Notes under the pieces: generated by a model
Database searches by the model: none
Seen by the model: the letters and a program-made list of their open reading frames with translations, nothing else
What the model was told of the DNA's origin: nothing
Program-made: the position numbers and the translations under genes
DNA from: Myxococcota bacterium
Lineage (GTDB): Bacteria > Myxococcota_C > UBA6777
Direction of reading: 5' to 3'
DNA length: 25,114 nucleotides
NCBI GenBank assembly: GCA_023150835.1
Contig: JAKLKB010000007.1
Location: 62,001 to 87,114, forward strand
In this document: piece after piece, positions 7,473 to 24,977 of the stretch
How the letters are laid out: each line of letters opens with the position of its first letter
Position numbering within the stretch: position 1 is the stretch's first letter

Positions 7473-7727
7473 GGAGTGATACGATATTCGAGTGATCCAT
7501 GATCGAAGGATAGCGCGTAGACGCCCGACTGTTGGGCAGCCACACTTGTCTGCCCCTACGTTTTGCGATCACACGATGGGCGGATTTCGTATGACTTGTT
7601 GCCAAAAAAGCCGTGTTCGCGACCGTTCAAGCGACAGAGTCGTTGTCTTGAAAAACTTGCGATCTCTTCGCCAATACGGGGTCCATAGAGCCGCGCCAAG
7701 GAAGTGGGGCATGGGGTGAAACCCCAC
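7473..7727 (-). repeat. Composite repeat X+Y inside the MoxR operon
   Basis: Reverse complement aligns collinearly with 15156-15414 (GGAGTGATACGATAT, GTAGACGCCC, GGGCAGCCAC..CTGCCCCTAC, GCGGATTTCGTATGAC, CCGTGTTCGCGA, GGGGTGAAACCCCAC). Confidence 0.85.
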
Positions 7728-7802
7728 CCCATCTGTCCAACTGCGTAAGTCCATTCGGCTCGACGCAGCCGACACCAGCGCTCGCCCGCCGTGTTGCGGG
7801 TG

Positions 7803-9407: not shown

Positions 9408-9421
9408 CATCCGATGGTGTT

Positions 9422-9540
9422 GTGGGGTTGGAACCGCACACCCCGCAAGGGAACTCCGTCCCCTTGACCCCGTATAAATGGGGCGATCAGCGTTTTTCAA
9501 ACCCACAACACCGCCGCTTGAACGTCCGCGAACACAGGGG
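9422..9540 (+). repeat. Module X copy
   Basis: GTGGGGTTGGAACCGCAC ACCCCGCAAGGG...CCCCTTGACCCCG...GCCGCTTGAACG..CGCGAACACAG. Confidence 0.85.
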
Positions 9541-11381: not shown

Positions 11382-11521
11382 GTTCTACACGCTCCTTTGG
11401 CGGTGCTTATGGCTCGCTCGTGCTTGTAGCATATCCCCCCGAAAAGGCGCAAAAAGCACACAAGTCCTCTGCCGCGATCAGGTGGGCGTGACGCCGTTGC
11501 CCCAAAAAACCACGTTCTGCG

Positions 11522-11830
11522 CTACTTGGTGATGGCGGTACACATCTTGTCTTTGCACGCGATCTTGTCGAGCACCATGCAGTCATAAGCGCAGGTTTCT
11601 TTGTAGCCCTTCAACAAAGCGCGGATAGACTCAGCATCTTTCTTGTGGACGACCACATAGCAACCAAAAGGGCACTTGCTACCGACGTTTTCACAATCTT
11701 GATCTGCCGCGCAGGTTCGGGCTTTTTCGATCTCTTGTTGGATCGCGTCTTTGCTCATCCCACACGCGGCCCCCCAAAGCATCCCTGCGATCCCACAAAC
11801 CATCCAAAGCGCCCGACGTACCGATACCAT
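11522..11830 (-). CDS. Small Cys-rich putative lipoprotein (102 aa)
   Basis: ATG at 11830 preceded by GGGAGG. Basic N-region, hydrophobic stretch, lipobox-like GAA-C. Eight further Cys (CAADQDC, CPFGC, CAYDC, CKDKMC). Confidence 0.75.
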   Translation of the reverse strand: MVSVRRALWMVCGIAGMLWGAACGMSKDAIQQEIEKARTCAADQDCENVGSKCPFGCYVVVHKKDAESIRALLKGYKETCAYDCMVLDKIACKDKMCTAITK

Positions 11831-11846
11831 GCAACACCTCCCTTGT

Positions 11847-13496
11847 TCACGAAGGGCTGACTTGGCTTTTCTGTTGCAAAGCCCCCGTGTGTCCGCCTTG
11901 TTGGGACGCTCGCACAAGCTCTGCATAAAAGTCCCTCAAGCCCTTGCCAAAAAGCTCGATCACGACCTTCTTTCGACGCACAAATCGCGCCCCAAACCGC
12001 TCCGTCAACGAGATATCCCGCAAAGCTTCTAAGGCTTCTTTTCCTGCCTTCGCTCCTTCTAGCGCCGCTGTGATCCGCCCGATCCCTGCCAAACAGCCAA
12101 ACCATTCTTCCAACTCCAGATCCGAGACCTGCGCAGGCAAGATCTGCGTCCCTCGCTGATACAACAACAGCGCCTCTTCCAAAGCCCCCTCTTGTTCGAG
12201 ACGCCCTCCAAGACGCCGATGGCACGAGATCAAGGTCTCCGAACAAGCACAAGCCGCGTACAGATGATGACGTGCGATCTCTTCGTCCCCCCGGTCTTGA
12301 TAGATCGCTGCTAACGCAAGATGCGAAAATGCATTGTTCGGATCTTTTTCTAGCGCATACAAGAAATACTCTTCGGCTTGCAACACCCCTTCCAGCCGCG
12401 CCGCCAACCACCCCCGAATGTGCAAGATCCGACTGTCCAAACGGCCTGCCGCCAGCACAGCATCGCAAAGAGCCGCCACTTCGGCCAAGCCGTCTTCTGT
12501 GTAAGCCGCGTCTCGCCGCCCTCGCAACAGATCCACCAACTCGTCCTCTTCGAGCAACAGCGCTTCCTCCACAGAAGACGCCGTGATCAAGATCAACAAC
12601 ATATTGGCCTCGGCAGCCCGTCCCACCTCGCCGATCCCTCGATAGTGTTGCGAAAAACGCCGCAGCGGGGCCGCCCATTGGGGATAACGGTACGGACGAA
12701 GGCGGCGGATCGCCCGAAGCACCGCTCCCACCGTCGCCTTGATCGGTGCGTCCGCTTGTTCGGGGTTGCAAGCCGCAAGAAAGTCAAAAAACACCTGTAC
12801 ACCTTCGTAATAGGCACTTTCCACAAAGATCCCTGCCGCTTCTTGGAACAAAGACAACGAGCGAAGATCCATCAGATAACGCTCTTCAAGCGCTTCGTAC
12901 AAAAGCTGCTCGATCGCATAACATCCCGTCTTTCCGAGGCTTGCAAGTTCGCGCAGAGACAGGCTCATCTCTTCAAAGCCGTATCCGGGAGCATTCAACC
13001 AAAGCTGAAAGCGCACACGCTCCATCCCATGTTCCAACGCCGCTTTTCGCTGCGTCGGACGCTCCGCCGAGGCCCACGTCGGATCTTGCCAAAACTGCCG
13101 CAACAGCTCCATACGACGGCGAATCAACGGCTGATAGTACGCAGGAGCCAACAGATCTTCCAACACAGGCAAGATCTCCACGCGGCTTTGTGAGGCCGCT
13201 GCCAGTCGAAGCGCATCATAACGCAGCGCAAGTTGCATCTCGGTGCGCAAGATGCTCTCCAAACCTTCGGCGATGTGGGTATGCTCGACCAAGAGAGATT
13301 CAAAACGAGCTTGGTGTTCTTCGCGGTTGAGTCCCGCCCCATCGGAGCGTTCGTTTAGCATCGTGCGCAGCCAGTCAAAATAAGCCGACACAAGGCCATC
13401 TTGCTCTACATTCTTGGCTTGTTTGTCGGATGCTGCGGATTCTACAGCTTTTTGTATCTGTTCTTCTGCCATGTGCGCTTTCTCGCTTTCCGTCAT
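11847..13496 (-). CDS. TPR-repeat-containing hypothetical protein
   Basis: ~550-aa helical ORF with TPR-like segments (AEEYFLYALEKDPNNAFSHLALAAIYQDRGDEEIA; GALEEALLLYQRG). Start uncertain (13499 TTG, 13496 ATG or 13472 ATG). Confidence 0.75.
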   Translation of the reverse strand: MTESEKAHMAEEQIQKAVESAASDKQAKNVEQDGLVSAYFDWLRTMLNERSDGAGLNREEHQARFESLLVEHTHIAEGLESILRTEMQLALRYDALRLAAASQSRVEILPVLEDLLAPAYYQPLIRRRMELLRQFWQDPTWASAERPTQRKAALEHGMERVRFQLWLNAPGYGFEEMSLSLRELASLGKTGCYAIEQLLYEALEERYLMDLRSLSLFQEAAGIFVESAYYEGVQVFFDFLAACNPEQADAPIKATVGAVLRAIRRLRPYRYPQWAAPLRRFSQHYRGIGEVGRAAEANMLLILITASSVEEALLLEEDELVDLLRGRRDAAYTEDGLAEVAALCDAVLAAGRLDSRILHIRGWLAARLEGVLQAEEYFLYALEKDPNNAFSHLALAAIYQDRGDEEIARHHLYAACACSETLISCHRRLGGRLEQEGALEEALLLYQRGTQILPAQVSDLELEEWFGCLAGIGRITAALEGAKAGKEALEALRDISLTERFGARFVRRKKVVIELFGKGLRDFYAELVRASQQGGHTGALQQKSQVSPS

Positions 13497-13560
13497 CAAG
13501 CCGCATCCGGCCTCAAACCGTTCCTTGACCGATCCGTTTCCGCGCAGCTTGCCAAGATCT

Positions 13561-13656
13561 GCCGCACAAAGTCAAGGCGACCCCGCCGCACAAAGCCAAG
13601 GCCACCCCCTCGCACAAAGCCAAGGCCACCCCCTCGCATAAAGTCAAGGCCGCATC
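13561..13656 (+). repeat. 24-bp tandem repeat, 4 copies, in divergent intergenic region
   Basis: Units GCCGCACAAAGTCAAGGCGACCCC, GCCGCACAAAGCCAAGGCCACCCC, CTCGCACAAAGCCAAGGCCACCCC, CTCGCATAAAGTCAAGGCCGCATC. Confidence 0.85.
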
Positions 13657-13767
13657 GCTGCACAAACACACTGCACCCACACACAAGCCGATGCGCTAGA
13701 CAGATCCGACCGCACATCCTAGGATGACGACCGCCCACAAACCCCGCACCCAAAGAAGGAAGCCGCG

Positions 13768-15126
13768 ATGACCTCCGAAACGCCCTCTCACCAACCTTGG
13801 TGGCCCCCAAAAGAACGCAGCCAGACCGTGATCACGCTCGCCCTCCCGATCATCGGGGGGATGCTCTCCCAAAATGTGATGAACCTTGTAGACACCGCGA
13901 TGGTCGGGCATTTGGGAAACAATGCCCTTGCAGGCGTTGGGATGGGCAGCTTCGCCAACTTTATGGCGAGTGCTTTCATTATGGGTGTCTCTGTGGGTGT
14001 CCAAGCGATCGCCGCACGACGGCTCGGTGAAGGCCGCGAAAGCGAAACCGCCATCGGACTCAATGGTGGACTCCTGCTTGCGCTGCTTCTTGGTATCCCG
14101 TCTGCGCTCGTGCTTTTTCTGCTGACGCCCAGCTTTTTTCCCTACTTGATCTCCGACCCTGCCGTGATCGCCATCGGCATCCCTTACTTTCAATCTCGAC
14201 TGATCGCCTTGCCCGGCGTCGGGATGAACTTCGCCTTTCGTGGTTATTGGAATGGTGTCAATCGCTCAAGTATCTACATGCGCACGATCATCGTGATCCA
14301 TGCAACCAACCTTTTCTTGAACTGGGTGCTGATCTACGGAAATCTCGGGATGCCCGCCTATGGGGCCACAGGTGCGGGTGTCGCCACCACCATCGCAACC
14401 TACATCGGCACCCTTTACTACTTTTGGCAAGGCTTCTCTTATGCCCGCCCTTCGGGCTTTTTTCGTGGCCTTCCTGACAAAGAAACCTTTCTCAACACCG
14501 TACGCTTGACCATCCCCAACGGGCTGCAACAATTCTTCTTTGCCGCCGGAATGACCGTCTTTTTCTGGATTATCGGAAAAGTCGGAACACGCGAACTCGC
14601 GGCCTCAAATGTATTGATCACTCTGATGCTTGTGGGTTTGCTGCCGTCGATCGGCTTTGGCTTGGTGACGACTTCGCTTGTGGGACAGGCCCTCGGTCGA
14701 AAAGACCCCGAAGATGCGGTGCGTTGGGGATGGGATATCGCCAAGATCGCGGGTGTGCTGCTGTTTCTCTTGTCGCTACCGGGTGTATTCTTTCCCGATC
14801 TGATGCTCAACGTCTTTCTCAAAGATCCTCTCACCCTCGAACTTGCACGCATCCCGCTCCAGCTTCTTGCCCTCACTCTTTTCATCGAAGCCGTTGGCCG
14901 GATCTTTATGCACGCCCTGCTTGGAGCGGGTGACAGTGGTCGTGTGATGCGTTACTCGATCTTTCTTCAATGGGGTATCTTTCTTCCTTGCGCCTACATC
15001 ACAGGCCCTTTGCTCGGCTTTGGGATGCTCGCGATCTGGAGCGGCCAGATCGTCTATCGCGTCGCTCTCACCGTCGTCTTCGCCGCCTTTTGGCACGATG
15101 GTTCTTGGAAAAGGATCCAGCTCTAA
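13768..15126 (+). CDS. MATE family efflux transporter
   Basis: 452 aa. LALPIIG, VDTAMVGHLG..ALAGVG, NLFLNWVLIYG.LGMPAYGATGAGVAT and LVGQALG motifs. About 12 hydrophobic segments. Confidence 0.95.
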   Translation: MTSETPSHQPWWPPKERSQTVITLALPIIGGMLSQNVMNLVDTAMVGHLGNNALAGVGMGSFANFMASAFIMGVSVGVQAIAARRLGEGRESETAIGLNGGLLLALLLGIPSALVLFLLTPSFFPYLISDPAVIAIGIPYFQSRLIALPGVGMNFAFRGYWNGVNRSSIYMRTIIVIHATNLFLNWVLIYGNLGMPAYGATGAGVATTIATYIGTLYYFWQGFSYARPSGFFRGLPDKETFLNTVRLTIPNGLQQFFFAAGMTVFFWIIGKVGTRELAASNVLITLMLVGLLPSIGFGLVTTSLVGQALGRKDPEDAVRWGWDIAKIAGVLLFLLSLPGVFFPDLMLNVFLKDPLTLELARIPLQLLALTLFIEAVGRIFMHALLGAGDSGRVMRYSIFLQWGIFLPCAYITGPLLGFGMLAIWSGQIVYRVALTVVFAAFWHDGSWKRIQL

Positions 15127-15155
15127 CAACGCGTGGTGCAGTGGGATGGTCTTTG

Positions 15156-15414
15156 GTGGGGTTGGAACTCCACGCCCCGCAAGGGACCACAGGCCCCTTG
15201 ACCCCGTTTTGGCGGGGTGATCGACGGTGTTTCTCACCAACAGCGCAGCCGCTTGAGCGTTCGCGAACACAGCTTTTTTTGGCAACTGCGTCATACGAAA
15301 TCCGCCCGTTGCGTGATCATAAAAATGTAGGGGCAGCCCCCTGTGGCTGCCCAAGCACAGGGCGTCTTCGCGCTCTCCTTCGATCACAGATCACTCAAAT
15401 ATCGTATCACTCCG
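15156..15414 (+). repeat. Composite repeat X (15156-15293) plus GTAG-REP module Y (core 15327-15352)
   Basis: Most complete copy. Y core GTAG-GGGCAGCC-ccctgt-GGCTGCCC followed by GGGCGTCT. Sits at the left edge of the AT-richer island. Confidence 0.88.
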
Positions 15415-15485
15415 ACGAAGAAAAAAGAGAACATATCTCCTTTCACGTGCCCGAGTATGAAAGGCAGGTTGCTATAAACACGGCG

Positions 15486-16175
15486 CTATTGTTCACTTGG
15501 CCTTACGATATTGAGTATATGATTCTTATAGATTTGCGGCATCAATTCCAGCACGAGTTCTTTTCCTAAAATTTCAGACTCTTGTGTGATCTCAGTAAGC
15601 AATTCGATTGTAAGGCACTCGATGGCTTGCTCGGAGATGGGTGCATAACTCAAATGCCAAGGCTCAGGATACATACCACCTCTATCGTATTTATAGGGGC
15701 GAAAGAAGCCGAACCGTTCGATATTTTCGTCCAACCAACCATGCAAAGAGTAGAAAATCCCGCTCTCTTTGACTTCTTCGGGTAACAGCTTCGGTTGATA
15801 GCCTTCAGGCATGACGGCCCCATCGATCACGTCGATCTCAGTACCCCAATGATGACGGCTACCACCCGGCAAAGCAGACCAGTTGAGGATGCAGTCGATG
15901 ATTTGAAGCTCAGACAAAGACGAATATTCGTACGGATTACCTTCGATATCATACAAAGGCTTTTTGCCGCGAAACTTCTGATTCCAGATGCGCAACTGGG
16001 TGTCGTAGTCACGAAATGAACTAAACGGCAACAGGTCAAATCCATCTTTTTGCGCTGCGATACGCATCTCTAAAAAAGCCTGCGCAGCTTCTTGATGGGC
16101 AGCAAACCTCGGCTGCTCCATCTGAACGACATGTGTTCTTTCTCGGCCTGTGATTTCGAGTTCGTTAAAGAGCAT
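15486..16175 (-). CDS. M15 family zinc metallopeptidase (D-alanyl-D-alanine carboxypeptidase, VanY-like fold)
   Basis: SSFRDYDTQ, WSALPGGSRHHWGTEID (SxHxxGxxxD) and EPWH motifs. GGAGG upstream. Confidence 0.92.
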   Translation of the reverse strand: MLFNELEITGRERTHVVQMEQPRFAAHQEAAQAFLEMRIAAQKDGFDLLPFSSFRDYDTQLRIWNQKFRGKKPLYDIEGNPYEYSSLSELQIIDCILNWSALPGGSRHHWGTEIDVIDGAVMPEGYQPKLLPEEVKESGIFYSLHGWLDENIERFGFFRPYKYDRGGMYPEPWHLSYAPISEQAIECLTIELLTEITQESEILGKELVLELMPQIYKNHILNIVRPSEQ

Positions 16176-16201
16176 ACCTTACACCTCCCACCGCTGCGCT
16201 T

Positions 16202-16513
16202 CTAACGCCGCGCCTTACGATCAATCTGAAGCGCAGCGGAAACAGCCTCCACCAACTTCGCCGCCTCAGGATCATAGACATAGTCGGTAATCGTTCCGTC
16301 CTTGATGCGATCGACGACCTCATCGATCACAAACAAAGGAACGAGGAACCATTCTTGGGGCTGCGCTGGATGACCGAAGCGGTCGTTGATGGTAATGTCC
16401 GATCGGGCTGGCGCAAGCAGCCTGTGGAATAGGCTCTCCATACGAGTGCGGTTAATTCCTGCAAGCTTGTAGATCGCTACTACTTGGACTTTTGCTAAAA
16501 GATAATGTGTTGG
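16202..16513 (-). pseudogene. 3' remnant of a YeeC-like GIY-YIG (T5orf172/MUG113) nuclease gene
   Basis: PTHYLLAKVQVVAIYKL..INRTRMESLFHRLL...DRFGHPAQPQEWFLVPLFVIDEVVDRIKDGTI matches my recollection of the YeeC C-terminus. The upstream part of the track ORF is repeat DNA. Confidence 0.75.
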
Positions 16514-16592
16514 GCGCTTGGACTTGCCAGCGAGAGCGAGCGCGAAACCTTCCCTTGCGTCGGTCTTTCCGAACAAATCGAAGCGGTGTTCT

Positions 16593-16716
16593 CCTGAAAC
16601 CTCCTGCCCTTCGGAAAGTGAACATGCTTGCCCGCGTATCTCCCCTTGCCTCCGAATTCCACGAACATTCTCACGCGATTCTTTCCTGAAACGCCCTGCC
16701 CTTCGGGGTTTGAACA
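16593..16716. repeat. Island 32-bp repeat, copies A (16593-16624) and B (16685-16716), within ~92-bp degenerate tandem units
   Basis: CCTGAAACCTCCTGCCCTTCGGAAAGTGAACA vs CCTGAAACGCCCTGCCCTTCGGGGTTTGAACA, 26/32 identical. Confidence 0.8.
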
Positions 16717-16814
16717 TCCAGCGCGAAATAGTCTTCTTGCTTCGAAACCTCCCGACTTGCCTACGCTTTGGAAGAAGTTAGCTTACGCAATAAACGAACT
16801 TACCAAAATATTGC

Positions 16815-16842
16815 TTGACATCAAAACAACTTTAATTACAAT
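16815..16842 (+). promoter_or_regulatory. Candidate sigma70 promoter
   Basis: TTGACA-N16-TACAAT pointing toward the EVE-MTase-REase operon. Confidence 0.45.
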
Positions 16843-17099
16843 GTAAAAGCTTTATTTTTTTACTAGACATTAAAAATAAAAGAAAAGGAATTTAATTTGA
16901 TTGGGTATACCTATTCTTATTGATAGTACCCATTTTTATCGTTCGACTATATCAAATTAAAGGAATTTTTCTTCTTTTTGTCGAATTATTTTTCATAATG
17001 CTTCCTTTGCTATTTGTTCATTTTTATGAGTTACTTACACCTGCTCTAAAACATACAGCAGAGCCTTTGCATTCCACGAACAATTCAAACCGAATATCG

Positions 17100-17131
17100 C
17101 TTGAAACTTCCTGCCCTTCGGAGTTTGAACA
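17100..17131. repeat. Island 32-bp repeat, copy C
   Basis: CTTGAAACTTCCTGCCCTTCGGAGTTTGAACA, 27/32 to copy A. Flanks TTCCACGAACA and TTGCCTCCG are also shared. Confidence 0.8.
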
Positions 17132-17339
17132 GATTTTTCTGCGTTGTTCTTTTTGCCTCCGCATCAATCTGGTGCTCTTGTCGTTGTTGTTTTCGTCAAT
17201 TTTCAACGTTAAGATAGCAACAAAATAATCATCTCTCAAAAAATCCTTGACAGCAGAACGGCTCTTGGTGTAAAGATGCCCGGAGAAGCTGATGTTGATT
17301 CCTTAACAAAGAACAAACAAAAATGAAGCAAGGCTCGAT

Positions 17340-17765
17340 ATGAAATTTTGGATACTTAGCACCAATCAAGACAATTTAGATATTACTTTAAAATATAAAG
17401 TTTTTGGACTTTCTTCAAAAAAAAGAGCTTCTTTTAACAAAATACAGCAAGAAGATAACGTCGCTTTTTATGTCAGCAGAAAATCAAATGAAAAAACAAG
17501 CTTTCAAATTCAAAAATTTCTTTGCTTGGCTTCAGTCAAAGAAAAGCACGAAAGTGACCAAATTTTATGGAAACAGGAAGAAGATACATTTCCTCTAAGA
17601 TTAGTTCTAGGTGAGATAAAAAAAACAGATATTTTAGCTCCTCCTCTCATTTGTGATTTTTCCGTTGTCAAAAATCCCCTTTACTGGATGTTGCCTTTCC
17701 GATCTGGTGTGACTGAGATATCACAAACAGACTGGTCTTTGTTGCTCGATGCCATGAAAGGTTGA
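17340..17765 (+). CDS. Standalone EVE-domain (PUA-like) protein
   Basis: 141 aa. MKFWI start, FG.....R..FNKIQQEDNVAFYV, W...EDTFPLR, GVTEISQTDWSLL: the pattern of DUF55/EVE proteins. Confidence 0.75.
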   Translation: MKFWILSTNQDNLDITLKYKVFGLSSKKRASFNKIQQEDNVAFYVSRKSNEKTSFQIQKFLCLASVKEKHESDQILWKQEEDTFPLRLVLGEIKKTDILAPPLICDFSVVKNPLYWMLPFRSGVTEISQTDWSLLLDAMKG

Positions 17766-17768
17766 AAC

Positions 17769-18569
17769 ATGATGAATAACTTACAAAATTTTATGAATCA
17801 AATAATTTGCGGCGATTGCCTCGATATAATGAAACAAATGCCATCCAATTCAGTGGATCTAGTTGTCACAAGTCCGCCATATAATTTAAAAAATTCAACC
17901 GGAAATGGAATGAAAGATGGCAGAGGTGGCAAATGGTCAAATGCTGCTCTTATCGAAGGTTATAGTCACTACGACGATAACCTGCCACACGAAGAATATG
18001 TCGAATGGCAAAGACAGTGCATTAATGAAATGATGAGAATTTTACATGAAGATGGAGCTATATTCTACAACCACAAATGGCGAGTTCAAGGCGGCTTATT
18101 GCAAGACCGGCATGATATTGTATCAGGTTTTCCCGTAAGACAAATTATTATTTGGAAAAGAAAAGGAGGAATAAATTTTAATAAAGGATATTTTCTTCCC
18201 ACATACGAAGTGATATATTTGATTGCAAAAAAGGGATTTGAATTAGCGCCGAAAGCAAATAGTGTTGGAGATGTTTGGGAATTCACACAAGAATTAAACA
18301 ATGAACATCCTGCTCCATTTCCGTTGGCCTTACCCGAACGGTGTATTTCATCTACTCTTGCAAAAACAATATTGGATCCCTTTTCGGGTTCTGGAACAAC
18401 TGCTCTGGCAGCCAAAAAACTGGGACGTAACTTCATCGGAATCGAAATATCACCGCTGTACTGCGAATCTTCTAAGAAAAGATTAGCTTCTGGCTCTTCC
18501 ACCTTCGAGTTGACTTCTACTGAAGAACCACAGAAGGCTCAGCTCTCTTTACTGGACATGGGAAAATGA
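17769..18569 (+). CDS. Beta-class site-specific DNA methyltransferase (N6_N4_Mtase, SPPY, probably N4-cytosine)
   Basis: IICGDCL, DLVVTSPPY, HPAPFP, ILDPFSGSGTT, GRNFIGIEI. Confidence 0.95.
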   Translation: MMNNLQNFMNQIICGDCLDIMKQMPSNSVDLVVTSPPYNLKNSTGNGMKDGRGGKWSNAALIEGYSHYDDNLPHEEYVEWQRQCINEMMRILHEDGAIFYNHKWRVQGGLLQDRHDIVSGFPVRQIIIWKRKGGINFNKGYFLPTYEVIYLIAKKGFELAPKANSVGDVWEFTQELNNEHPAPFPLALPERCISSTLAKTILDPFSGSGTTALAAKKLGRNFIGIEISPLYCESSKKRLASGSSTFELTSTEEPQKAQLSLLDMGK

Positions 18570-18570
18570 A

Positions 18571-19359
18571 ATGAAAACCTATACAAAAGAAAGCTTGATT
18601 CAGGAATTACAACAAATTCGGGAAATTGGATGGCACGAAAGTATCAGAACAGGAAAAGGCAGAAATGATGGATCTGTGGGGAATACCTTAGAACAGCTTT
18701 TGGGAATAGAAGAAAATAACCTGCCTATCCCCAACGCTTCTGAGTGGGAGCTAAAAGCCCAAAGAATCAACACTAGCAGCCTTACAACATTGTTCCATAT
18801 GGAGCCTTCGCCTAGAGCTTTAAAATTCATTCCTTCTATTCTTTTGCCTATTTATGGTTGGGAACATCAAGAAGCTGGTGAGAAACATTCGAAAGCAGAA
18901 AAAAGCTTCCGCCAAACAATTAACGCGAATAGCTTTTCTAGTAGAGGCTTTTCTGTGTTTGTGAATAGAGAGGAAGAAAAAATAGAAATTATATTTGATT
19001 CTGAACGTGTTGATGAATCGCATCAGGGATGGCTGAGTGAAGTGATTGAAAAAGGAGGAAAAACACTTCCAGAAACTCCATATTGGGGATTCAAAGACAT
19101 TTTTCACAAAGTAGGCTCTAAACTCCATAATTGCTTTTTTATACAAGCTGAATCAAAGCAAGAAAATAATAAAGAATATTTTTATTATAAAAATATTTTA
19201 ATGTTGAAAAACATTTCTTTAGAAAAATTTATTGATGCAATAGAAAGTGGTTATCTATATATTGATTTTGATGCTCGTACTGGCCATAATCATGGAACAA
19301 AATTTCGTATACGAGAGAAAAGTATTCCCGATTTATACGAGACCTCGATCTCTTATTAA
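18571..19359 (+). CDS. MvaI/BcnI family restriction endonuclease
   Basis: GSVGNTLEQLLGIEENN..IPN..EWELKA, TTLFHMEP and IDFDARTGHNHGTKFRI motifs. Starts 1 nt after the MTase stop. Confidence 0.9.
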   Translation: MKTYTKESLIQELQQIREIGWHESIRTGKGRNDGSVGNTLEQLLGIEENNLPIPNASEWELKAQRINTSSLTTLFHMEPSPRALKFIPSILLPIYGWEHQEAGEKHSKAEKSFRQTINANSFSSRGFSVFVNREEEKIEIIFDSERVDESHQGWLSEVIEKGGKTLPETPYWGFKDIFHKVGSKLHNCFFIQAESKQENNKEYFYYKNILMLKNISLEKFIDAIESGYLYIDFDARTGHNHGTKFRIREKSIPDLYETSISY

Positions 19360-19430
19360 AGCAAGTTCTTTTGAGTTTCAAACATTCTATCGTTGTCCTC
19401 ATCCCACCAAATATTCCAACGTACTCTGCT

Positions 19431-19462
19431 CCCCAAACCTCGCGCCCTTTGGGAGGTGAATA
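19431..19462. repeat. Island 32-bp repeat, copy D
   Basis: CCCCAAACCTCGCGCCCTTTGGGAGGTGAATA, 24/32 to copy A. Nearby TGTGTCGGTCTTTCCAAA (~19564) matches TGCGTCGGTCTTTCCGAA (~16556). Confidence 0.6.
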
Positions 19463-19719
19463 TCTCACATCTCATTGTTTCTGCAATTTCAAACACTTAC
19501 CACAACGCTAAAGCAAAAAGTTTGAGCATTTAGGCTCGCCACAGCGAGTGAAGATTCATCGATTGTGTCGGTCTTTCCAAATATTTCAAACGAATCACCA
19601 AAAGTCTTTGAATATTAAGCAGCTACAAAAATCTTGCTAAAACCTCTTGATTTTTGTTGTGCGTCTTGTAAATTTTATGTTTCAACTTTTGCCACCCTGA
19701 CAGCGAGGCTTGTTGCACG

Positions 19720-20823
19720 TTGATATTGTCAAAACAAATTTCTCTATTTGAGCAACCAGCAGAACAAGTTTCTGTGAAAGACTTTTCACAACCGTCTTCT
19801 AAAAAGTTTCCAAAAACGCGGTACCAAGGAAGCAAATACAAACTGTTGCCGTGGTTAAAAGAAAATTTGGAACGAATTGATTTTGCAACAGTTTTGGACG
19901 CATTTGGAGGAACAGGTTCCGTTTCATTCCTCTTCAAACAGATGGGAAAAACAGTTTACTACAACGATATACTGCAATTTAATTTTCTTACTGGAAAAGC
20001 TCTCATCGAAAACAACATTGAAACGTTGAACACAAACGACATTTCTCTTTTGGTATCGAAAGATGCTAATTTCTCTTATTTAAACTTTATAGAATCGACA
20101 TTTCCGGACATTTACTACACAAACGAAGAGAATCAATGGCTTGATATTTTACTGCAAAATATTTCAAAATTAAAAAACGAATACAAACAAGCTCTTGCTT
20201 TTTGGGCATTATTTCAATCATGTATTATCAAACGACCTTACAACCTCTTTCATAGAAAAAATTTGTATGTTCGAACCTCTGAGGTAAAAAGATCTTTTGG
20301 AAACAAAAAAACTTGGGATACTCCTTTTGAGCAGCATTTTTTCAAGTTTATAAAAGAAGCGAATCAAGCGATACTTGATAACAAAAAACGAAACAAAGCC
20401 TACAACCAAGACGCCCAACAATTAAACCTTTCCCCTGATTTAGTATATATTGATCCTCCTTATATTCCAGCAAAAGGCACATTAACTTTCTATCGAGACT
20501 TCTATCATTTTTTGGAAGGAATGACTGACTATCATAATTGGCCAAAATATATTGATTTTGAATCGAAACATAAAAAACTTTTTTCGATTTCTTCACCTTG
20601 GGAGAATAAAGAGAATATCACTTTCGCATTCAAGGAACTTCTCGAAAAATATAAAGATTCTATCCTCGCAATTTCTTATCGAATTGATGGGATTCCTAGT
20701 ATCGAAGAAATAAAAAAAGCATTATCCTATTTAAATAAAAAGGTGACTGTACAAGAAATCGACTACAAATACGTTCTGTCTACAAAAAGCGACAGCAAAG
20801 AAGTACTCATCATCGCGGAGTAA
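19720..20823 (+). CDS. D12-class (alpha group) N6-adenine DNA methyltransferase
   Basis: RYQGSKYKLL, VLDAFGGTGSVS, YND and DLVYIDPPY motifs. TTG start is uncertain. Confidence 0.92.
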   Translation: MILSKQISLFEQPAEQVSVKDFSQPSSKKFPKTRYQGSKYKLLPWLKENLERIDFATVLDAFGGTGSVSFLFKQMGKTVYYNDILQFNFLTGKALIENNIETLNTNDISLLVSKDANFSYLNFIESTFPDIYYTNEENQWLDILLQNISKLKNEYKQALAFWALFQSCIIKRPYNLFHRKNLYVRTSEVKRSFGNKKTWDTPFEQHFFKFIKEANQAILDNKKRNKAYNQDAQQLNLSPDLVYIDPPYIPAKGTLTFYRDFYHFLEGMTDYHNWPKYIDFESKHKKLFSISSPWENKENITFAFKELLEKYKDSILAISYRIDGIPSIEEIKKALSYLNKKVTVQEIDYKYVLSTKSDSKEVLIIAE

Positions 20824-20829
20824 AGAGAT

Positions 20830-20871
20830 GGGCTCATGTTGTGTTAAGACCTCAAAACACAACATGAGCCC
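20830..20871. terminator. Perfect 16-bp stem hairpin after the D12 MTase
   Basis: GGGCTCATGTTGTGTT-aagacctcaa-AACACAACATGAGCCC. No clear U-tract, so the terminator role is tentative. Confidence 0.5.
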
Positions 20872-20977
20872 CTTGCAAAACAACAAGGCGGTTATTCTAG
20901 GTTTCTCTTTATCAATTGCGTCGCTCCTATGGAAAAAGCACTTGCGTTCCTCCTGACCGCGTGCTATCTCTTCACTT

Positions 20978-21009
20978 ACCGAACGGTCAGTTTTAAGAGA
21001 CCGACTGGT
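20978..21009. promoter_or_regulatory. Candidate tandem TetR operators
   Basis: ACCGAACGGT (20978-20987) and ACCGACTGGT (21000-21009), 22 bp apart, just upstream of the TetR gene. Confidence 0.55.
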
Positions 21010-21046
21010 TAATACACAACGAAGCATATGAAAACAAAAGGAGATC

Positions 21047-21694
21047 GTGTTGTCAGGAGACGCACGAGAGCAAGTGATCAAGATCGCGATGCGATGTTTT
21101 GCGGCCCAAGGATACGAAGGGACTTCACTACAGTGGATCGCCGAAGAGATGGGTGTGACGAAGTCTGCGATCTTGCATCATTTTTCGAGCAAAGAGCAGT
21201 TGCGGATGGCGGTATTGTCGTCGATCTTGGCGCATTGGAAAGAGACATTACCTCGGGTGCTGTTGGCGGCGACGGCGGCGAGTCGGCGTTTTGATGCGGT
21301 ATTTGATGCGTTGTACAGTTTTTTTTCGGAAGATCCGGATCGTGCGAAGTTGATCTTGCGCGAGACGATGGATCGCCCGGAAGAGACGAAGGTGTTGTTG
21401 CGAGAGCAAGTGCGGACGTGGCTGGATGTGATCGCGGCCTATATTCGGGAAGGTCAAGAAAAAGGCCGGCATCATGGGGACGTGGATGCGGATCTGTACG
21501 TATTTTTGATCTTGCGCTGCGTGTTGGCCGTCACAGCTTCGGTCGGATTATCCGAGGCTTTGTACGGATCTGACGCCGCACAACGCCAAGCCCGCGAGAT
21601 GGCGCGTATCGCCAAGATCAGCCTGTTTCGCCAAGCCGACGAAAGCGAACGCGAGAACACATACGCCAAAGGGCGCGAGGTCGATCCGCCGTAG
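21047..21694 (+). CDS. TetR/AcrR family transcriptional regulator
   Basis: A..CFAAQGYEGTSLQWIAEEMGVTKSAILHHFSSKEQL HTH. AGGAGA RBS; start is GTG 21047 or TTG 21050. Confidence 0.95.
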   Translation: MLSGDAREQVIKIAMRCFAAQGYEGTSLQWIAEEMGVTKSAILHHFSSKEQLRMAVLSSILAHWKETLPRVLLAATAASRRFDAVFDALYSFFSEDPDRAKLILRETMDRPEETKVLLREQVRTWLDVIAAYIREGQEKGRHHGDVDADLYVFLILRCVLAVTASVGLSEALYGSDAAQRQAREMARIAKISLFRQADESERENTYAKGREVDPP

Positions 21695-21720
21695 AGGCGT
21701 ATTGAGGATGTCCAAGGTTG

Positions 21721-21844
21721 AAAAACGCCGTGTTCACGGCCTTTGGAGATAGCGGCGTGGTTGGTTTGAAAAACGCCCGTTCACCCCAACAATATGGGGT
21801 CAAGGGAGCCGCGCTTCCTTGCGGGGCGTGGGGCAGCGCCCCAC
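21721..21844 (-). repeat. Module X copy between tetR and acyl-CoA dehydrogenase
   Basis: CCGTGTTCAC...TTTGAAAAACGC...GGGGTCAAGGG...CTTGCGGGGCGTGGGGCAGCGCCCCAC. Confidence 0.85.
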
Positions 21845-21875
21845 AAAAGTAAAGTAAAGAAGAAAGGATTGATCG

Positions 21876-24849: not shown

Positions 24850-24865
24850 TCACCCAATTTTCCCC

Positions 24866-24977
24866 CCGTGTTTGTGCAAGTTCAAGCGGTGCGGAGGTTT
24901 GTTTGAAAAGCAATGATCACCCCGCCGATACGGGGTCAAGGGGGCCGCGACCCCTTGCGGGGTGTGGGGCGTTGCCC
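24866..24977 (-). repeat. Module X copy, terminal hairpin interrupted by the MITE
   Basis: CCGTGTTTG...TTCAAGCGG...GGGGTCAAGGGG...CCTTGCGGGGTGTGGGGCGTTGCCC. Confidence 0.85.

Follow-up and report, generated by a model that had tools for sequence, protein, structure and literature searches.

Organization of the three-gene locus

The subject of this analysis is a group of three genes at positions 17340-19359 of a 25,114-nt stretch of DNA from a Myxococcota bacterium (contig JAKLKB010000007.1), referred to here as the window, position 1 being its first letter. All three are encoded on the forward strand. The first (17340..17765) encodes a standalone EVE/PUA-like protein of 141 aa, which Pfam, structure matches, AlphaFold and Foldseek place with the PH1033/UPF0310 type. 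The second (17769..18569) encodes a beta-class N6_N4 DNA methyltransferase (MTase) of 266 aa that carries an SPPY motif and is probably N4-cytosine specific. The third (18571..19359) encodes a 262-aa Type II restriction endonuclease (REase) of the MvaI/BcnI family, i.e. of the monomeric type. As argued below, the trio is a modest Type II variation on a theme already described, the association of EVE proteins with restriction systems, and is not a new kind of defence.

The first-pass annotation of this DNA had described the genes as a tightly coupled operon, and the three co-directional open reading frames (ORFs), with their gaps of 3 and 1 nt, are confirmed to the exact coordinates. The EVE/MTase junction reads TGA-aac-ATG and the MTase/REase junction TGA-a-ATG, and a Shine-Dalgarno-like purine run lies 6-7 nt before each of the MTase and REase ATGs. 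No terminator-like site was found between the three genes, and a promoter scan returned 12 sites against 12.3 in the shuffled expectation, i.e. no excess. Contigs from metatranscriptome libraries of two studies cross both junctions: one spans EVE/MTase (17641-17968) and another MTase/REase (18337-18668). These contigs are compatible with one transcript across the trio, DNA carry-over being a possible source as well; the runs had been picked with positions 17200-19500, and their lack of cover over the 5' half of the EVE gene, a D12-class MTase gene further downstream and the flanks is uninformative. The packing is operon-like, and the three genes are probably co-transcribed and translationally coupled. 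PADLOC, which had been suggested as a check, recognizes the locus in part: its Type II MTase and REase models match, and the EVE protein has no significant match.

Fold and pocket of the EVE protein

The Pfam EVE domain (PF01878) covers residues 2-137 of the 141-aa protein with an E-value of 6.7e-6 and 26.6 bits (cut-off 23), a score that would be weak by itself. Among solved proteins, the sequence matches PH1033 (1wmm, E 1.3e-10) and MJECL36 (2p5d, E 2.7e-5); the NCBIfam model PRK00809 gives E 2.3e-14, yet this is under that model's own cut-off. The AlphaFold model has a pLDDT of 95.6 and a pTM of 0.89, and in Foldseek it aligns with PH1033 (1wmm) at a TM-score of 0.88, followed by YTH readers of N6-methyladenine (m6A), EVE structures (2eve, 1zce), THYN1 in a structure bound to 5-methylcytosine (5mC) DNA, and VcaM4I (6yex). 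Because sequence matches, AlphaFold and Foldseek agree, the EVE call is firm: we are confident that the protein is predicted correctly as an EVE/PUA-like fold, and the alternative entertained at first pass, that it might not have this fold, fails.

In a 42-member family alignment D39, W116 and D131 are invariant and Y44, P85, R87 and F109 nearly so; the window protein keeps all seven. This conserved aromatic and acidic pocket is predicted to accommodate a flipped-out modified base. The protein is unfused, with stop codons on both sides and the domain filling the chain. Two variants were seen on the side: a population variant at window position 17489 (T>G) that produces N50K, and a P85T substitution, in a column more than 90% conserved, in another cluster member. 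We also considered the EVE protein as a controller protein; this was ruled out by its EVE fold and the lack of any helix-turn-helix (HTH) family match.

The MTase-REase pair is a widely transferred cassette

The MTase matches Pfam N6_N4_Mtase with E 7e-44. Its SPPY motif, together with best solved relatives that are deposited as DNA cytosine-N4 methyltransferases (8s9n, E 1.6e-39), indicates that its mark is probably N4-methylcytosine (m4C), in agreement with the m4C-type label it had been given. MvaI/BcnI-family nucleases cut as monomers, strand by strand. The assignment of the REase to this family holds, with E 1e-67 for Pfam MvaI_BcnI (PF15515), E 8.5e-18 for R.MvaI (64 bits over 244 residues, a weak alignment) and E 1e-8 for R.BcnI. 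The active site of MvaI consists of Glu36, Asp50, Glu55 and Lys57 according to PMC1874612, and in the HMMER alignment E41, N55, E60 and K62 of the window REase stand opposite these residues.

Eighty related loci from many bacterial and archaeal phyla were surveyed, their nucleases being 51-64% identical. The Asn at the position of the metal-binding Asp50 (REase residue 55, window 18733-18735) is found in 77 of 77 subfamily members (window, L002-L081), in which E41, E48, E58, E60 and K62 are also invariant. It is therefore a trait of the subfamily and not a lesion of the window copy. An N6_N4 MTase lies just upstream of the REase in 78 of the 80 loci, and since the nuclease subfamily is nearly always paired with an MTase, it is presumably active. 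The 1-nt gap between MTase and REase is likewise the family norm: of the 76 related cassettes whose MTase ORF could be resolved, 69 have the two genes overlapping or no more than 24 nt apart. The unusual feature of the trio is the 3-nt spacing of EVE and MTase. A recognition site sought from its avoidance around the 80 loci showed no consistent depletion for either CCWGG (779 observed against 705-977 expected) or CCSGG (630 against 615-757).

At least 500 bp upstream of the MTase is available at 67 of the 80 loci. The 130 upstream ORFs scanned are a mixture by Pfam (MurJ, SecA, ArgRS, LexA, Cmk, ribosomal proteins, integrases, ParE, AbiU2, TIR and others), with HTH_3 in only one. The first-pass annotation had pointed out that the EVE gene occupies the position where a controller gene often sits; in this cassette family, that slot is empty. 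Thus, MTase and REase make up a two-gene cassette that is autonomous, has been transferred widely and lacks a controller gene.

Relatives and neighbourhoods of the EVE protein

A word-indexed protein search with the window EVE returned two clusters, its own and P0002, which is 60% identical and comes from a single Logan contig of 1802 bp. In an exhaustive search of 1.84 billion representatives there were 47 matches; all but those of its own cluster are 23-48% identical, and only its own cluster scores better than 1e-30. No close relative was found in genome contigs, JGI metagenome contigs, IMG/VR or phage records. The best non-self match of the window MTase, P0050 (81% identity at 98% coverage and 506 bits, the runner-up having 453, with the C-terminal tail shared), also comes from one Logan contig of 1802 bp, the same size as that of P0002. 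A 144-aa EVE and a 268-aa MTase would fit this contig with about 555 bp left over. P0002 and P0050 thus probably share one contig and represent a second EVE-MTase adjacency, as judged from the equal size of 1802 bp alone.

The wider EVE family was followed in one archaeal phylum, where it occurs in 103 of 401 genomes with up to 5 matches per genome. In a first set, restriction-type neighbours lie within 1.5 kb at 9 of the 29 best-scoring loci, namely: type I (four), DUF1156 or DUF499 (two), BrxL, Mrr, and one DpnII nuclease with an N6_N4 MTase. In a second set, such neighbours lie within two genes at 22 of the 35 best-scoring loci, and include type I, Eco57I/MmeI-type IIG, type ISP, type III, BREX, SNF2-PLD, GmrSD, Mrr, HincII-like and SacI nucleases, and D12 and N6_N4 MTases. 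Both sets together give restriction or MTase neighbours at 31 of 64 loci and a DNA MTase within two genes at 15 of 64. Three of the 64 loci (L108, L152 and L154) have the EVE gene directly upstream of a co-directional N6_N4 MTase gene at no more than 20 nt, as in the window; their MTases belong to a different, permuted subfamily. Other frequent neighbours in archaea are toxin-antitoxin genes, DUF365 and YgjP-like proteins, and at L097 and L102 (also L125 and L127) EVE is followed by, or lies beside, a transglutaminase-like protein of about 340 aa.

The host genome carries another EVE protein, of 176 aa, on contig C7 (L091 1-7870). Its gene is divergent from that of a DUF499 protein of 1029 aa, and a gene for a DUF1156/N6_N4 MTase is close by; this EVE-DUF499-DUF1156 locus has the (Hma/BREX-related) arrangement published by Bell et al. 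(PMC7641849).

The trio lies on a foreign segment

Six species genomes of the host phylum, of 5-11 Mb each, are in the collection. In blastn, a contig of the sister species G001 (C221, L084) aligns with the window at 11521-15124 and 20880-21848 (89-91% identity) and with nothing between. The window therefore holds a 5.75-kb insertion (15125..20879): at the corresponding place, from the MATE gene to the region upstream of TetR, the sister species has some 337 bp. Within the insertion, a low-GC foreign segment (16718..20830; GC 0.33-0.41 against 0.55 in the flanks) holds the EVE, MTase and REase genes (GC 0.33, 0.39 and 0.35, respectively; genome 0.55) and a gene for a D12-class (Dam-like) adenine MTase (19720..20823, forward strand). 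The latter is separated from the REase gene by a 360-nt non-coding gap and has no partner nuclease beside it. The same DNA is present in metagenomes of at least 5 further studies, with at least 0.9 of the sampled words, and is therefore no assembly accident. The cassette reached the host by horizontal transfer on the low-GC segment, which was imported recently.

At the left edge of the segment, a repeat of 69-88 nt in three copies (62-75% identical; 16556-16716, 17063-17164) marks fragments of a T5orf172-like gene. One copy (17063-17164) falls in a 71-aa low-GC ORF (17024..17239, reverse strand), a gene fragment, and resembles part of the T5orf172-like gene (16556-16716) at 70-75% identity. 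That gene is a T5orf172/MUG113 (GIY-YIG-like) ORF at 16202..16717 (reverse strand), which matches the C-terminal half of the domain only. DNA contigs from other samples end at the left-edge repeat, and its 12-nt core occurs 18 times in the genome. At the right edge, just past the D12 MTase gene, there is a perfect 16-nt inverted repeat (20830..20871). A gene for a VanY-type D-Ala-D-Ala carboxypeptidase (15486..16175, reverse strand; GC 0.46) lies within the insertion and outside the low-GC segment. No tRNA or integrase gene was found in the window. Intergenic repeats of a separate family, about 100-150 nt long and 71-81% alike, occur in the window at 809-944, 7598-7752, 9413-9521, 15141-15270, 21722-21848 and 24863-24970, and are shared with the sister species contig.

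The host genome (G000) is nearly devoid of CCWGG, the MvaI site: its 7.56 Mb contain 151 sites, where a Markov model predicts about 6,900 and base composition about 19,600. With an observed/expected ratio of 0.022, it is by far the most avoided 5-mer in the host, and the window has none. In the sister species G001 there are 0 sites in 23.9 kb against 59 expected; in G002 the site is partly depleted (22 against 71 expected), and in G004 and G005 it is not depleted. No MvaI/BcnI nuclease was found in G001-G005 (genomes 64-94% complete). Since G001 lacks the island yet is purged, and no such nuclease was found in these genomes, the purge predates the cassette and is not explained by it. A search of the host genome for EcoRII-C as the cause of the purge gave no match, and its controls likewise gave none. 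The host has a second MvaI/BcnI-family nuclease (G000:C103:20113-20748, L086; E 6e-41), adjoined by a 414-aa N6_N4 MTase, with a DDE transposase alongside and no EVE beside it. As for other words, GATC occurs about 3.5 times more often than expected in the flanks of the window, and among 4-mers CCGG is avoided most.

Possible roles of the EVE protein

Our tentative preference, held at somewhat less than even chances, is that the EVE protein is an accessory reader of modified DNA, a satellite of the cassette that the cassette can dispense with. It would bind DNA bearing a base modification distinct from the mark that the cassette itself makes, and would thereby give a modification-sensing arm to a system that otherwise hits unmodified sites only. 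This proposed role is the one that Bell et al. gave to standalone EVEs beside type I and DUF499 systems (PMC7641849). Any contact of EVE with the MTase or the REase, the base that it would read and any effect on restriction, such as the redirected or activated nuclease suggested at first pass, are points that we infer. A functional tie is plausible because the genes share a foreign composition, the adjacency is probably repeated in an orthologous pair (P0002/P0050) and the family has an affinity for restriction systems that bear an MTase.

Several observations weigh against this reading, and most of them favour an EVE that is unrelated in function to its neighbours: a promoter-less MTase-REase cassette would have landed behind an EVE gene in a low-GC donor, and the stretch with both would later have been transferred. 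No EVE accompanies any of the 80 related cassettes (tblastn; phmmer at E<=10 over 2353 ORFs; a hidden Markov model of the 42-row family alignment at E<=10), no PUA-like Pfam domain occurs in the 130 ORFs upstream of the cassette, and such an EVE was found in none of the 4 whole genomes with the cassette that were searched. The upstream neighbours are instead heterogeneous (housekeeping, integrase and toxin-antitoxin genes), and at 7 loci the cassette follows unrelated co-directional genes (LexA, Cmk, ArgRS, CobQ-like, PALP) at -8 to +17 nt, these gaps being taken from the longest MTase ORF. Because the cassette habitually sits tight behind unrelated genes, close upstream spacing alone is no evidence of shared function; the spacing in the window could reflect the cassette's habit of borrowing upstream transcription. 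The relatives of the EVE protein add to this. A quick tree pairs the window EVE with P0002 on long branches, and the clade that holds them is distinct from the archaeal one. Bacterial relatives of similar identity to the window EVE, which were left out of that tree, sit with regulators and not with restriction-modification (RM) genes: the plasmid relatives examined (22-30% identity; 3 of 9 records) lie with MarR/rhodanese in 2 Priestia plasmids and with MarR in 1 Chondrinema plasmid, and the EVE-family member of the congener G002 adjoins a WYL-HTH regulator. The link between P0002 and P0050 is itself weakened by two other MTase matches with contig sizes that apparently coincide by chance, P0084 (1802) and P0161 (2807), and the archaeal fractions are descriptive only, since the loci are kin, from one phylum, picked by score and not independent. 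Given the absence of EVE from the sister cassettes and the regulators beside its bacterial relatives, we regard an unrelated EVE as nearly as likely as a satellite. It has to contend with the probable second EVE-MTase contig (60% and 81% identity for the two proteins), with EVE to N6_N4 MTase pairs that recur in archaea with unrelated MTase subfamilies, and with the strong enrichment of restriction and MTase neighbours around the EVE family (31/64 loci). Recurrent adjacency is in fact seen for the EVE family (31/64 archaeal loci) and not for the RM family of the window (0/80). Uniqueness of the linkage to this genome, which would have spoken against the first-pass proposal, is accordingly nearly the case for the RM family, but not entirely, given the one probable further contig and the same gene order with other MTases in archaea.

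Two further roles appear improbable to us. The EVE protein might read the cassette's own m4C or hemimethylated sites as a sensor of methylation state, either replacing a controller by delaying the nuclease until the host is methylated, or guiding the MTase to hemimethylated DNA, in the way that UHRF1 guides DNMT1 through its SRA domain. In tight co-directional pairs EVE always abuts the MTase gene and never the nuclease gene (window; L106, L108, L152 and L154), and the cassette family is without a controller gene (HTH_3 in 1 of 130 upstream ORFs); moreover, fusions of a reader to an MTase, followed by a PD-(D/E)XK nuclease, are known for the EVE-like DCD domain (PMC7641849). Yet the cassette is established without EVE at 80 other loci, EVE is accompanied by no DNA-binding or activation domain, and the systems with which EVE associates use differing marks (m6A in type I, BREX and D12), so that one pocket would have to read several. 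A more specific form of this idea, by analogy with SRA and DNMT1, is that EVE and MTase could form a reader-writer pair that times or restrains the nuclease or steers maintenance methylation, with no sensing of foreign DNA; we consider it slightly less probable still. If it were true, EVE would be a protein-level stand-in for the controller gene missing from the cassette family. A comparably slim chance attaches to a role outside DNA restriction, in which EVE reads a modified RNA base or binds a modified nucleoside or nucleotide in a regulatory or housekeeping capacity. The nearest solved folds after PH1033 and MJECL36 are YTH m6A-RNA readers, housekeeping genes adjoin many of the archaeal copies (L094, L095, L112, L114, L116, L117 and L119), and bacterial relatives lie in operons with MarR, rhodanese or WYL regulators. 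Such a role sits poorly with an EVE gene that shares its stretch of foreign DNA with three genes for DNA modification or restriction, and the patchy, multi-copy distribution of the family (103/401 genomes, up to 5 matches) fits accessory defence better than housekeeping.

If EVE does work with the cassette as an accessory reader, a free-standing base reader can be added to the simplest of restriction systems, a monomeric Type II nuclease that lacks both motor and scaffold. The action of such a reader would be unusually easy to dissect, with three small genes of which one is optional, and the published EVE-restriction link would widen to Type II, IIG, III, ISP and BREX neighbourhoods, as the archaeal survey suggests. 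If EVE is unrelated in function, the locus is an ordinary mobile RM cassette and a 3-nt gap is no proof of common function.

Comparison with known systems

The first-pass annotation had proposed the trio as an undescribed defence system. Its underlying idea, of an EVE reader as a possible satellite to a restriction system, is supported; the claim of novelty is not, as Bell, Wolf and Koonin (2020; PMC7641849) already propose this role for standalone EVEs beside type I and DUF499 systems. There, standalone EVEs are said to be 'regularly found' next to type I RM systems, chiefly in archaea, and also with a COG1743-DUF499-SWI2/SNF2 nuclease system, and it is predicted that EVE discriminates modified DNA for the nuclease, the MTase shielding the host by a mark that EVE does not read. 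The same paper describes DCD-MTase fusions followed by a PD-(D/E)XK nuclease, and EVE-MTase fusions as extremely rare. In its main text, 'Type II' occurs in reference titles only, with no Type II RM system. A 2025 review treats EVE, in the text available, solely as a fused module of modification-dependent enzymes (PMC12707154), and in a full-text literature search that combined the EVE domain with type II restriction, MvaI or BcnI, 'EVE domain' is absent among the matches listed. The concept of a standalone EVE with a restriction system is thus in print, and the Type II instance appears to be new within the literature searched.

Like the type I and DUF499 systems of Bell et al. (PMC7641849), the window has a single-domain EVE gene adjoining a restriction system with its own MTase. 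Unlike in the systems described there, EVE is partnered by a Type II cassette of two genes, which has an MvaI/BcnI nuclease and lacks a translocase or ATPase, the host is a bacterium, and EVE comes first, 3 nt from the MTase. The order of reader, MTase and PD-(D/E)XK-fold nuclease is also that of the DCD-MTase fusion systems (PMC7641849), except that their reader is a DCD domain fused to the MTase whereas the window reader is a separate EVE protein.

With the MvaI and BcnI RM systems, the window pair shares the nuclease family, the equivalents of Glu36, Glu55 and Lys57, and an adjoining MTase, in the window probably of N4-cytosine type. MvaI is blocked by m4C and has a modification-dependent second specificity (PMC1874612, PMC3001055). 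The window REase differs in having Asn at the position of Asp50, and no EVE is reported with MvaI or BcnI among the matches listed. The trio was also considered as a Type IV modification-dependent nuclease, which was ruled out by the presence of an MTase and by the reader being a separate gene. The Type IV EVE-nuclease fusions (VcaM4I, an EVE-HNH protein, and EVE-McrB) have the same reader fold, but in these one polypeptide combines reader and nuclease, cleavage is confined to modified DNA and there is no MTase, whereas the reader in the window is unfused and accompanies a Type II pair that is blocked by modification.

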